Positions 11,724-15,081 of a stretch of 64,000 nucleotides of DNA are shown here, in pieces. The position numbers and the translations under genes are program-made. The notes under the pieces are model-generated. The model had not been told where the DNA came from, made no database searches, and worked only from the letters and a program-made list of their open reading frames with translations. Source of the DNA: Alphaproteobacteria bacterium (GTDB taxonomy: Bacteria; Pseudomonadota; Alphaproteobacteria; UBA828); NCBI GenBank assembly GCA_963422645.2, contig CAXXVO010000015.1, positions 1 through 64,000 of the forward strand, read 5' to 3'. How positions within the stretch are numbered: the stretch's first letter is position 1; every line of letters begins with the position of its first letter.

Positions 11724-12237
11724 ATACTAGGCCCTGTACCCATAAATAATTGTCTGTGAGAGCGAATCATGATTCAAGCTCCCAAATTGCGGGAGCTTGG
11801 CGATGAACCGTTACGATCTGACCGACTTCGAATGGAGCGTGATCGAACCGTTGCTGCCGAACAAGCCGCGCGGGGTCCCTCGTGTGGACGACCGGCGCGT
11901 GCTCAACGGCATCATGTGGGTGCTGCGCTCCGGCGCCCCCTGGCGAGACCTGCCGGAGCGCTACGGGCCCGACACCACCTGTTACAACCGCTTCAATCGC
12001 TGGCGCAAGAAGGGCATCCGGGATCGCCTTATGGACGCTATCGTCGAGGCTTGCGACGGCGACATACAGATGATCGGCAGTTCTAGCGTCCGGGTTCACC
12101 AGCACGCAGCGGGTTCAAAAAGATGGGGTATTCGGGTTGGCTTTTGAGCCTGCCACCTGAGGTGGCTGCTCCTCCGGCCTTATCGTTGAAAAGAGGTCCT
12201 CACGAGTCGGCCTCAGCCAGAAGGAGGAGGAGCAGCC

Positions 12238-13281
12238 ATGAAGCATTTTGCCGGACTCGACGTCTCGTTGGAATGGACAAGCCTGTGCGTAGTAGACGAA
12301 GTCGGGCAGATTGTCCGGGAAGCGAAAGTCCTGAGCGAACCCGATGCGCTGGTAGCGTTCTTCGCCGAGTTGGACGTTCGGGTGACGCGTATCTGTCTCG
12401 AGGCGGGCCCGCTGTCGCAGTGGCTTCATGACGGCCTCGCTGAGGCCGGCTTGCCGGTGGTGTGCGCGGAGACCCGCCAGCTGAAGGCCGTGCTGTCGGC
12501 GACAGTGAACAAGAGCGACCGCAGCGATGCGCGCGGGATCGCGCAGATGCTGAGGGTGAACATGATTCGGCCGGTCCACGTGAAGACGGTGTCGAGTCAG
12601 GAAAAGCGAATGCTGCTGACGAACCGCAAGTTCATGCTGAAGCAACTGTGCGACGCCGAGTCCCACATCCGCGGCACGCTACGCAACTTCGGGTTGAAGG
12701 TCGGCCAGGTCAGCCGTGGTCGGTTCGAGACGCGAATCCGCGAACTGGTCGAGGATCGGGCGGCGCTGACATGTCTGGTGCAGCCGCTGCTGCGTGCACG
12801 GGCAGAACTGCTGACAGCCTTCAACGAGCTGCACAGCATGATGCTTCATCAGGTGCGGGCCGATCCGGTCTGCCGCCGTTTGATGACAATCCCTGGTGTC
12901 GGTCCGGTGACGGCGTTGACCTTCCGGGCCACCGTCGATGTTCCGGCGCGCTTCGGCCGTTCTCGCTCGGTAGGTGCCCACTTCGGTCTGACGCCACGCA
13001 AATGGCAATCCGGGGAGATCGATCACATGGGTCGGATCTCCAAATGCGGCGATGCGATGATGCGAACGGCACTCTACGACGCCGCCCACAGTATGCTCAC
13101 ACGAACGACGCGGTGGTCGTGGTTGAAGGCGTGGGCCATGCAAGTGGCAAAACGCCGTGGCCAGGAGCGGGCGAAGATTGCGCTCGCTCGCCGCCTCGGC
13201 GTGATCATGCACCGCATGTGGATGGATGGCAGCGAGTTCCGGTGGAACCGCGGCAGCGCAGACGCTGCGGCCGCCGCCTGA
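12238..13281 (+). CDS. IS110/IS1111 DEDD recombinase (347 aa)
   Basis: GLDVS, CLEAG, KSDRSDA, IPGVG, GLTP...QSG motifs; ggaggag RBS. Confidence 0.95.
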   Translation: MKHFAGLDVSLEWTSLCVVDEVGQIVREAKVLSEPDALVAFFAELDVRVTRICLEAGPLSQWLHDGLAEAGLPVVCAETRQLKAVLSATVNKSDRSDARGIAQMLRVNMIRPVHVKTVSSQEKRMLLTNRKFMLKQLCDAESHIRGTLRNFGLKVGQVSRGRFETRIRELVEDRAALTCLVQPLLRARAELLTAFNELHSMMLHQVRADPVCRRLMTIPGVGPVTALTFRATVDVPARFGRSRSVGAHFGLTPRKWQSGEIDHMGRISKCGDAMMRTALYDAAHSMLTRTTRWSWLKAWAMQVAKRRGQERAKIALARRLGVIMHRMWMDGSEFRWNRGSADAAAAA

Positions 13282-13319
13282 GAGCACACGGTAACGGGAA
13301 GGAAAAGTCGAGAGCTTCC

Positions 13320-13520
13320 GCTCTGGCGGAGGATGTCCCCGTGGGGACGAAGGATGAGGTGAGACCGTGGCCCCCCAAGCCCCAATCCGTCGACGACGGG
13401 GTGAGGGCGTCAAAAAGATTGTTCCGCCTCGTCTTCTGATCCCATCTTGTTGACGGCTTCGGATACAGGGCCGATCACGAAGAGAAGCACGACCCCCACG
13501 GTGGGATATCTGCAGCCAAA
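13320..13520 (+). ncRNA. candidate bridge/seek RNA of the IS1111 element
   Basis: Four 7-8 nt segments match both halves of the reconstructed target and circle junction; hairpins between them; boundaries approximate. Confidence 0.8.
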
Positions 13521-14053
13521 CGCGGTAGAGAGGAGGAAGAGCCGGAGGAGTCCTTGACTGAGACAACCCGAATAGAGAAGGGGGGGCCGGATCATTGCAT
13601 GGGTCGTTTCCGAGGCGGACTGACGACGAAGATCCACACCGTGGTCGACGCCAGCGGGCTGCCGCTCCGCTTCGCCTTGAGCCCCGGTCAGGCCCATGAC
13701 AGCACCCTTGCCGGAGCTTTGCTCGACGATCACCTGCCGCCCGACAGCTTCGTGCTCGCCGACAAGGCCTACGACGCCGAATGGATCAGGGCGATGATCG
13801 AGGCGCAGGATGCGGTGCCGATCATCCCCAACCGCAGCACCACCACCACGCCACATGCCTTCAGCCGAGTTCTCTACCGCATGCGCAACCCGGTCGAGCG
13901 TTTCTTCAACAAACTCAAACAGTTCCGGTGCATCGCAACACGCTACGAAAGACTCGCCGCCAACTACCTCGCCATGATCAAAATCGCCACCATCCGCATC
14001 TGGCTGCGAGTTAATGAGTCCACGGCCTAACACGGTGTGGATACGAAAGAAAA

Positions 14054-15081
14054 GGCTCAATTCGTGAATCGTAGGCGTCGTGATAGCATGTCGCTCGATT
14101 CGCCTTGGAGGTCAGACAGATGGATCACGAGCGGTTTCGGGATTGGTTCTCGCGTGTCGATGAATTGACGGCGGCGCAGCGCGGGGAGGTGGCAGCGGTG
14201 CTGTCGGAGCCTTCGGAGGGCGCGGCCTCGCTGGCGGCGATCGAGCTGGGCGTGGATGACGAGCGGCGCTGTCCGCATTGCGGCGCCGGCGGGGCGGTGT
14301 CGCGGGGCAAGGCGCGCGGTCTTCGCCGGTTCCGGTGCAAGGACTGCGGGAAGACCTTAGGTGCGCTGACCGGCACAGCGCTGTCGAGTCTGCACCATAA
14401 GGAGCGCTGGCTTGCCTTTGGCGCCTCGCTTGCCGAAGGCGAGACGATCAAAGAGGCTGCAGAGCGCTGCGGGATAGCGCCGGGCACGGCGCATCGCTGG
14501 CGACACCGCTTTCTGGCGGCGGTGCGCCAGGCGCCGGATCGGCTTGCCGGGTCGTCGAGGCTGACGAGAGCTTCGTTCTGGAGAGCCGCAAGGGGGAGCG
14601 GAAGCTGGACCGCAAGCCGCGCCGGCGCGGCGGGAAGGCCCGCAAACGCGGCCTCTCGCGCGAGCAGGTGCCGATCCTGGTCGCCGCCGACCGTGCGGGC
14701 GAGACCCTCAGCCATACCCTGCCCGCGCTGAACGCAAAGAGCGTGAAGCAGGTGCTGGAGCCGGTCGTCGCGCCGGATGCACTGCTCGTCTCCGACGCCA
14801 ACCGCTGCTATCCGCCCGTTGCGGCGGCGCTCAACATCCCTCACGAGAGCATCAACGCTTCTGCTGGCGAGCGGGTCCGGGGTGCGCTACACATCCAGAC
14901 GGTCAACAGCCGCCACAGCCAGATCAAGGGCTTTCTGCGCAGGCGGCGCGGCATCGCCATCAAGTACCTGGACAGCTATCCGAGGTGGTTCCATCTCATC
15001 GAACCCGGCGATCAGCCATCGCCCGGAGCCCGCCTCGAGGCGGCGATCGCCAGACCGCGCCTATGTTTCGCGAATTGAGCC
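14054..15081 (+). mobile_element. IS1595-family element with frameshifted transposase (14120-15078)
   Basis: IRs ggctcaattcg... / ...cgaattgagcc; CPHCG/CKDCG zinc ribbon, LLVSD, HIQTVNSRHS; frameshift near 14550. Confidence 0.9.

Follow-up and report, generated by a model that had tools for sequence, protein, structure and literature searches.

RNA-guided recombinases of the IS110 and IS1111 insertion sequences (ISs) were described in 2024 and are under development as genome-writing tools, and the natural aims of their guides are poorly charted. In the IS1111 elements ISEc11, ISKpn4, ISPst6 and ISPa11, as far as they are treated in the portions of Siddiquee et al. 2024 (PMC11187229) used here, a DEDD recombinase of 330–350 amino acids with a GL-P----SG motif lies between subterminal inverted repeats of 11–13 bp and is followed by a long non-coding region; the seekRNA carries the complement of the top strand 5′ of the complement of the bottom strand, and insertion occurs at one target and in one orientation. 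In IS621, according to the corresponding portions of Durrant et al. 2024 (PMC11208160) and Hiraizumi et al. 2024 (PMC11208158), the bridge RNA has two internal loops, target and donor share a dinucleotide core, and each of them is bound through its bottom strand by the left guide and through its top strand by the right guide. We found counterparts of these features in an IS1111-type element on a 64,000-nucleotide stretch of alphaproteobacterial DNA (hereafter the window; assembly GCA_963422645.2, contig CAXXVO010000015.1, positions 1–64,000). The element interrupts an IS5-family element of the IS427 group at the A/G run where its two reading frames, orfA and orfB, meet. Our analysis indicates that this is very probably an RNA-guided IS1111 element that repeatedly enters the A/G run of IS427-group IS5 elements, in the orientation of orfA. 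The locus is a clean natural case, in which the DNA itself reveals the guide, its target, empty sites and independent insertions.

The features of the element and of its host are as follows (all coordinates refer to the window):

11730–12122, plus strand: left part of the IS5 element, with the left inverted repeat from 11730 and orfA (DUF4096), start codon at 11797 or 11803
12121–12122, unstranded: left AG core, the last A and the first G of a run of five A and seven G (A5G7)
12123–13580, plus strand: IS1111-type insertion sequence, 1,458 bp with one copy of the core counted
12129–12139, plus strand: left subterminal inverted repeat tattcgggttg, after a 6-nt extension atgggg (12123–12128)
12238–13281, plus strand: recombinase gene, 347 amino acids, with a RuvC-like DEDD domain and a Tnp_20 domain containing the serine motif GLTPRKWQSG
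13554–13559, plus strand: candidate junction promoter, a −35-like TTGACT that would lie 17 nt from GAAGAT across the joined ends of a circle
13564–13574, plus strand: right subterminal inverted repeat caacccgaata, followed by gaga and the core AG (13579–13580)
13581–14027, plus strand: right part of the IS5 element, consisting of orfB, which encodes the DDE domain in the −1 frame with respect to orfA, and of the right inverted repeat

The left junction reads ggttcaaaaAG^atggggtattcgggttgg (^ marks the crossover), with the AG at 12121–12122 and the first nucleotide of the element at 12123, and the right junction reads caacccgaatagagaAG^ggggggccgg, with the AG at 13579–13580. The AG core is the only sequence common to the two junctions, it recurs at both junctions of the relatives described below, and the IS1111 element has made no true target duplication. 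Excision of 12123–13580 restores ...ttcaaaaagggggggccgg, an A5G7 run of the same form as the empty sites of related IS5 copies. The subterminal repeats are perfect over 11 of 11 bases (the repeat search, pair I23, extended them to 14 nt at 93%). The recombinase matched PF01548 (E = 2e-11) and PF02371 (E = 4.7e-22), scored 238.8 bits on NF033542, ‘IS110 family RNA-guided transposase’ (cutoff 140), and aligned with the structure of the IS621 transposase (8wt6, E = 3.1e-12) with the GLTPRxxxSG motif in register; a weak alignment of the N-terminal part pairs GLDVS, CLEAG and KSDRSDA with the corresponding stretches of IS621. Non-coding DNA amounts to 299 nt downstream of the gene (13282–13580) versus 115 nt upstream of it (12123–12237). 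Thus, in its domains, subterminal repeats, long 3′ non-coding region, single target and orientation, and the order of its seekRNA segments, 12123–13580 belongs to the IS1111 group of the IS110 family, as an intact element that has been active recently. A preliminary description of the window had already proposed this assignment, which the Pfam, NF033542 and IS621 structure comparisons bear out; the coordinates, junctions, restored A5G7 run, 11-bp repeats and four guide segments that it listed were all found at the places it gave.

The host element, at 11730–14027, measures 840 bp once the insert is removed and is flanked by a TA duplication (11728–11729 and 14028–14029). IS427-group elements, in the section of Dziewit et al. 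2012 (PMC3281130) that covers them, are 832–865 bp long, make a 2-bp duplication and have two overlapping frames with a conserved frameshift motif, and the full DDE motif is present in the fused product only. Our IS5 copy agrees with them in size (~840 bp, within the ~800–1000 bp taken as typical), in the 2-bp duplication and in the two overlapping frames. The orfA product matched PF13340 (E = 3.4e-30) and covered profile positions 2–108 of NF033580 with 130.5 bits, the orfB product matched PF01609 (E = 2.2e-20) and covered positions 115–258 of the same profile with 164.2 bits (cutoff 110 for both), and orfB is in the −1 frame relative to orfA. A −1 shift on the A/G run would yield ...S-K-K-G-G-P..., as read from the frames, and the run would serve as a working frameshift site. 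What sets our copy apart from the group is that it is broken by 1,458 bp exactly at the frameshift motif. Its orfA now ends in an 8-residue tail read from the left end of the IS1111 element (open reading frame 11797–12147) and its orfB is displaced by 1.46 kb, so that this copy is unable to make its own transposase; the loss of the fused DDE enzyme follows directly from the sequence. The expectations that the site is the orfA/orfB recoding window of an IS427-group element and that the insertion disables the host transposase were therefore both borne out. The recombinase gene starts 116 nt downstream of orfA in the same orientation, and read-through from the IS5 promoter could feed it.

The four guide segments lie in the region downstream of the recombinase gene, within a predicted structured RNA:

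13339–13501, plus strand: predicted body of the bridge/seek RNA, ~165 nt, from the consensus fold of 20 relatives
13339–13346 with 13494–13501, plus strand: stem P1, closing the RNA in the consensus fold
13348–13361 with 13425–13438, plus strand: stem P2, closing the target loop, with both hypervariable blocks inside it around a hairpin
13369–13376, plus strand: target loop 5′ segment GGCCCCCC (ggcccccc), complementary to the top strand of the right target half ggggggcc
13410–13417, plus strand: target loop 3′ segment UCAAAAAG (tcaaaaag), identical to the left target half plus core and pairing with the bottom strand
13441–13448, plus strand: donor loop 5′ segment CCCAUCUU (cccatctt), complementary to the core plus left end (aAGatggg)
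13481–13487, plus strand: donor loop 3′ segment AGAGAAG, identical to the right end plus core

Together with the G of the core, GGCCCCCC also fits gggggtc with one G-T wobble. We aligned the region downstream of the recombinase gene from the window element and 19 relatives at 56–98% identity. The 20 sequences share an invariant scaffold around two hypervariable blocks, which correspond to 13369–13376 and 13410–13417 in the window, and a nearly invariant AGATTG follows directly after the 3′ segment of the target loop in the relatives. RNAalifold returned 23 pairs, and in 8 of these both partners have changed in a compensatory way; 95.2% of cells were paired, versus 47–59% when the partners were slid, and the covariation score was 0.42, versus 0.10–0.17 when slid, a value reached by none of 500 shuffles.

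In the relatives the 5′ block is the complement of the sequence to the right of the element concerned, and the 3′ block is a copy of the sequence to its left together with AG. Among the elements with known flanks, the match to the left flank averaged 4.65 of 7 for own versus 1.85 for non-own flanks, and the longest complementary run to the right flank averaged 6.72 for own versus 3.48 for non-own flanks. Worked examples of this match are:

L008: loops gtcggcc/aggaaag, flanks gaggaaAG^gccgac
L013: loops ctgtcggctc/atgagag, flanks gatgagAG^agccgacag
L015: loops atccagcc/cgaaag, flanks acgaaAG^gctggat
L018: loops accgtccc/cggtag, flanks cacggtAG^ggacggt
L030/L028: loops tgtttag/gccggga, a further example of the match of guide and flank

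In most relatives the donor segments are conserved along with the conserved ends of the elements, and covariation is therefore scarce there. In L032 the left end is atgagg and the right end is aaagaAG, and both donor segments have changed to match (the 3′ segment is AAAGAAG). Alignment, covariation and flank matching thus all agree with the preliminary reading of these stretches as target and donor guides in the geometry of the family.

By analogy with ISEc11, ISKpn4, ISPa11 and IS621, the guide RNA would be made and bound by the recombinase. In the target loop, one segment would pair, right of the crossover, with the top strand (GGGGG(G/T)CC) and the other, left of it, with the bottom strand (TCAAAA plus AG), and the donor loop would read the element’s own joined ends in the same way. 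The target so specified would be the A5G6-7 run at the orfA/orfB overlap of IS427-group IS5 elements; TCAAAAAG^GGGGGTCC and TCAAAAAG^GGGGGGCC are predicted to fit, and the variant AAGAAGAAG^GGGGGGCC would not be entered. Excision would proceed via a circle with a junction promoter, in which the joined ends would read ...aatagagaAGatggggtatt..., and strands would be exchanged at the core; the circle, the junction promoter and the strand exchange are all modelled on ISEc11, ISKpn4, ISPa11 and IS621. Junction promoters are known for the IS1111 family from the portions of PMC11187229 cited above, and a TTGAC is found at the matching place in the relatives L008, L016, L017 and L028. A terminator scan gave one terminator-like site (12164–12179; 1.3 expected). 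In Rfam we found no family for the region at E up to 1 except one sub-threshold match to sucC; the latter lies on the minus strand inside the IS5 orfA, scored 22.8 bits against a gathering score of 50, and was taken as chance.

Parts of the window occur in metatranscriptome runs labelled sponge or coral. Contigs from four libraries of three studies fall on the non-coding region (X16, 13337–13585 with 0 differences; X18, 13283–13501; X20, 13328–13548; X19, 13006–13376), and we regard this cover as a weak hint that the guide RNA is expressed. Cover is absent over 12267–12995, inside the recombinase gene, in all four runs, which with contigs proves nothing about enrichment of the non-coding region, and none of the metatranscriptome contigs bridges either junction by 31 letters. 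Contig X18 begins at 13283, two bases past the stop codon of the recombinase gene and with adapter letters directly before it, and stops at 13501, the final base of the predicted closing stem, although contigs cannot show the ends of an RNA.

We identified four full copies of the element, each of which occupies a tcaaaaAG^ggggg(g/t)cc site and points the same way as orfA:

C16, in the window: 12123–13580, the reference copy
C14, in the same genome: G000:C14:8965–10422, 100% identical
G005, in another species of the genus: 98.2% identity
L109, on a metagenome contig: 98.6% identity

L109 was found with a pattern built from the guide loop alone, blind to the target, which gave one hit, in the site. 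The cluster of recombinases at 90% has five members, and the contigs of P0004 and P0005 are outside this count. None of the four copies lies in an unrelated sequence, the finding that the preliminary description had named as one that would refute it, and its proposal of on-target insertion agrees with the common site and orientation. The four IS1111 copies are 97.6–100% identical to one another. Their IS5 flanks are 81.5–95.5% identical on the right and 89.8–92.0% on the left, except for the left flanks of C16 and C14, at 98.8%. The IS5 halves are thus far more diverged than the inserts, indicating that the element entered different IS5 lineages. Because of the 98.8% identity of the C16 and C14 left flanks, we count at least three independent events and not four. 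As judged from these comparisons, the copies point to repeated on-target insertion.

To describe the target, we compared 15 IS5 sites in related genomes, of which 3 are occupied and 12 are empty. Eight of the 12 empty sites have the form restored in the window, seven with ctcaaaaaggggggtcc and one with ctcaaaaagggggggcc; three close empty copies carry the variant sites caaagagggggg, caacaagggggg and caagaagaaggggggg, and one distant empty copy reads ggaaaaaagggggt. The A5G7 run is the version of the window copy, and A5G6T is commoner (occupied sites, 3 of 4; empty sites, 7 of 12). In the window’s genome (G000) there is no unoccupied TCAAAAAGGGGG. Its only other full IS5 copy (C6:332333–333198) is empty; the site there, ctcaagaagaAGggggggcc, has 3 additional nucleotides that keep the frame and lacks the A5 run required by the guide, which could reflect escape or simple drift. 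Suitable sites number just 0–3 per genome among the genomes examined, and the multicopy harbour that the preliminary description envisaged is small by these counts.

Several observations weigh against repeated RNA-guided entry at a recoding site. The full copies number four, from one genus plus one metagenome contig; C16 and C14 may represent one insertion spread by recombination; and G005 keeps two perfect empty sites (L081 and L100), so that occupancy is incomplete. The relative L007 fails to match its guide on both sides (left flank, 1 of 7; right flank, a longest run of 3), which means that off-target or decayed copies exist in the clade. The plus-strand fold of the single sequence (z = −1.45) is not significant alone, a scan with promoter consensus sequences gave 0 promoter-like sites in the integrated state, and the metatranscriptome records are assembled contigs, which could derive from DNA and from which RNA ends, strand and transcription are not readable. 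With regard to the host, programmed frameshifting in the IS427 group is called likely in the part of PMC3281130 that treats it, being predicted from sequence rather than demonstrated. Finally, the A/G run also encodes the conserved residues K-K-G-G, and its conservation therefore need not stem from recoding. Against these points stand the common site and orientation of all copies, the guide that fits this site and the diverged flanks, and we hold to repeated RNA-guided insertion into the run with good confidence.

Why the element uses this site is less certain. The conservation of the run would make it a durable, harmless landing pad, and the recoding constraint is a plausible reason for the choice. 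The alternative that fares best accepts on-target insertion and takes the link with frameshifting as incidental: the lineage would pick any short conserved repeat of a mobile element, and the run would be kept mainly for K-K-G-G and owing to the youth of the IS5 copies. We give this account slightly less than an even chance. It is compatible with the mechanism of guided insertion proposed here and differs from it solely in the reason for the site. It gains from the distant IS427-group elements, in which the run varies in length (A6G5, A4G6) or consists of A8 alone; in seven such rows we read A6G5 three times, A4G6 twice, A8 alone once and A5 with interrupted Gs once. It is weakened by the position of the crossover exactly between the A run and the G run, and by the close IS5 copies, which vary around the run and rarely within it (8 of 12 empty sites keep it), as would fit an additional constraint.

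Two groups of relatives that are directed to sites other than recoding windows also favour an incidental link. The first is a 5′-truncated sister fragment in G004 (L063:1742–2019) at 83% identity, with the loops ggttccccc/ctcaatag (GGUUCCCCC/CUCAAUAG). On its right it adjoins AG^gggggaccc, which belongs to the terminal part of an IS21-like element and follows an IstB gene. No full copy of this sister was found in the 21 genomes of the genus searched, and its right junction alone is readable. The corresponding empty motif, CAATAGGGGGGACC, occurs 68 times in G000; the observation also takes in L002:900–1080. Few guide changes separate the loops of the sister from the IS5-directed GGCCCCCC/UCAAAAAG. 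The second group comprises L023, L024, L025, L027 and L029 (56–59% protein identity), which are inserted in serine-recombinase (resolvase/invertase) genes. By their reading frames, all five break the gene after ...VVWK or ...IVWK and before LDR..., and Pfam, applied to three of them, placed the break between positions 71 and 72 of the Resolvase profile; in L023, the pieces of the host gene lie at 2200–2379 and 3836–4060. These look like independent insertions at a conserved coding motif, as the host genes differ widely.

A protein search of GTDB representative genomes gave 56 loci, the best at 79% identity. None of the 56 (all at ≤79% protein identity) lies within an IS5 site, splits an IS5 element or is split by one, and L036 and L038 merely have an IS5-type gene upstream. 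It had been anticipated that most homologous recombinases would be flanked by IS5 frameshift windows, with guide loops that covary with the targets; the loops do track their own flanks, and the flanks themselves are different ones. Such an absence of IS5 sites among relatives is expected if the guide, and not the protein, sets the target. No clear gene extends across the junctions of the groups L008, L013, L016/L031, L017/L018/L037, L020, L028/L030 and L032. In a plasmid collection, 298 records matched the element, none of them over 80% of its length, and no close relative was present; the matches listed are at ~65–67% identity, with eight records in the 80–90% band. The 79% relative (L008–L012 and L050; OY843592.1) has seven copies in one genome, five of which share the flanks ...cccgaggagg(a/g)aAG^(g/a)ccgaccctcaa..., resembling a repeated extragenic element; L010, in which both sides differ, and L050, in which the right side differs, may be off-target events.

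A broader account can be drawn from the same relatives, whose targets have conserved motifs of other mobile elements as their common theme. This theme suggests a way of life, in some lineages, based on the parasitism and silencing of other mobile elements. More tentatively, and in our estimate with odds clearly against it, this IS1111 branch would be a specialised hyperparasite, whose guide loops track constrained motifs in the slippery IS427 run, in the end of the IS21-like element and in ...VVWK^LDRL.... If this is true, each insertion would gain a harmless home and at the same time switch off the host element, retargeting would need few guide changes (GGCCCCCC/UCAAAAAG versus GGUUCCCCC/CUCAAUAG), and the empty IS5 site AAGAAGAAG, which is 3 nt longer, would be an escape allele.

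We consider it improbable that the copies go back to a single ancestral insertion, after which the composite of IS5 and IS1111 was multiplied through descent, homologous recombination or transposition of the IS5 element in trans. The composite retains both IS5 inverted repeats and the TA duplication, so that mobilisation in trans is mechanically possible, and C16 and C14 have IS1111 elements that are 100% identical and 325-bp left flanks that are 98.8% identical. The right flanks of the same two copies, however, are just 81.7% identical, and this mosaic (window 11797–13580 compared with G000:C14:8640–10422) suggests recombination or a gene-conversion tract that ends at the right junction. Movement as a unit would carry equally similar flanks, whereas over the four copies the IS5 halves are 81.5–95.5% identical and the IS1111 elements 97.6–100%. 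Moreover, the guide loop fits the site and the loops of relatives fit their own, different sites, so that targeting is expected whatever the history of the copies. The same comparison gives no support to hitch-hiking of the IS1111 element on its host, as put forward in the preliminary description: no two composites share an IS5 host, and flanks of 82–95% identity surround IS1111 elements of 97.6–100%. Repeated insertion from independent events remains the preferred interpretation.

The strand of the guide RNA could be settled with still greater assurance. The preliminary description had read the segments on the other strand, as a bridge RNA with a CT core. This holds as far as the naming of the DNA is concerned, as the CT core and the order of left and right target guides (LTG/RTG) follow when the complementary strand is named; the RNA itself is read from the recombinase strand. 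The conserved stems are rich in G-U pairs, which would be C-A if read on the other strand: G-U is found at the column pair 25–36 in 13 of the 20 sequences, at 27–34 in 14, at 50–145 in 15 and at 53–142 in 10. A functional RNA from the minus strand, antisense to the recombinase gene, is thus highly improbable. In its favour, the core would read CT as in IS621 when the DNA is named by the complementary strand, as described in the relevant part of PMC11208158. Against it stand the abundant conserved G-U pairs, which would become mismatches, the minus-strand fold, which is no better than that of shuffles (z = +0.56), and the IS1111 seekRNAs, which in the portions of PMC11187229 dealing with them are read from the region downstream of the recombinase gene, with a junction promoter presumed to transcribe both.

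That the four short matches are chance in a G+C-rich non-coding tail can hardly be credited: each match is just 7–8 nt long and TCAAAAAG alone occurs 18 times in the genome, but the segments coincide with the pair of hypervariable blocks that follow the flanks from relative to relative, and they fall in internal loops of a structure supported by covariation. Moreover, the combined 12-nt site TCAAAAAGGGGG is found nowhere else in the 5.9-Mb genome, and own flanks are matched far better than other flanks, whereas no difference would have spoken for chance.

The window around the element is a nest of insertion sequences. At 9000–11732 lies a 2,443-bp element that encodes a Transposase_29 (PF21804) protein in two frames. 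It forms a head-to-tail pair with a second copy, marked by a direct repeat of 290 nt (99% identity, spacing 2,443), and over 100 instances of its 35-bp end are present in the genome. Such an end lies within 5 bp of the start of the IS5 element in both C16 and C14 and ~35 bp from the end of the C6 copy. Directly after the IS5 element, at 14105–15078, an IS1595-like transposase is split in two frames, with a zinc ribbon and helix-turn-helix at 14105–14731 and a DDE_Tnp_IS1595 domain at 14668–15078. Elsewhere in the genome, three copies of a different IS110-family element, at 55% protein identity, are found at G000:C8:627388–629826 and C16:189780–190636, two of them in tandem, 1,582 bp apart.

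Compared with the described IS1111 elements, the element of the window differs mainly in its target. The targets given for ISEc11 and its kin in the portions of PMC11187229 considered here are repetitive extragenic palindromic (REP) sequences, attC sites or short linear sites, whereas the window element is directed to a slippery A/G run in a transposase gene. Beyond the inverted repeats it has 6 terminal nt on the left and, on the right, 4 nt followed by the 2-nt core, where the same source gives 7 and 3 (or 6 and 3) as usual; the 6/4-plus-core arrangement is common to the whole clade of relatives.

The likeness to IS621 lies in how the RNA would work and in the catalytic serine motif, which aligns; when the DNA is named by the complementary strand, the core reads CT and the LTG precedes the RTG, as in the IS621 papers to the extent cited above. 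The similarity of the proteins is mainly in the C-terminal domain (E = 3.1e-12 overall). The RNA of IS621 is encoded upstream of the recombinase gene and that of the window element downstream, and in the orientation of its gene the window element has an AG core, the reverse order of segments and long subterminal repeats. With its downstream RNA and 11-bp repeats, the element thus stands outside the IS110 group in the sense of IS621, as a member of a different group with an IS621-like mode of working.

Our literature search revealed no IS110 or IS1111 element whose guide is directed to the frameshift window of an IS5 element; this search excluded the target tables in the supplements of PMC11187229 and PMC11208160, which list several hundred ISfinder elements and might include a comparable target. 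The class of mechanism has been known since 2024 and IS1111 elements inside other mobile elements are known as well, so that it is the target, the recoding window of an IS5 element, that is unusual and forms a class unreported in the literature searched. The element and its relatives also provide compact natural pairs of guide and target on one scaffold for testing how IS1111 guides are read, and the homopolymer target, which permits two pairing registers, is a useful test case.

IS4321 and IS5075 are reportedly IS1111-family elements that target the ends of Tn21-family transposons. Like the element described here, such transposon-end-homing elements use a conserved sequence of another mobile element as their home. 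Their target is outside genes, whereas the element of the window sits inside the transposase frames, at the recoding window, and splits the enzyme of its host.

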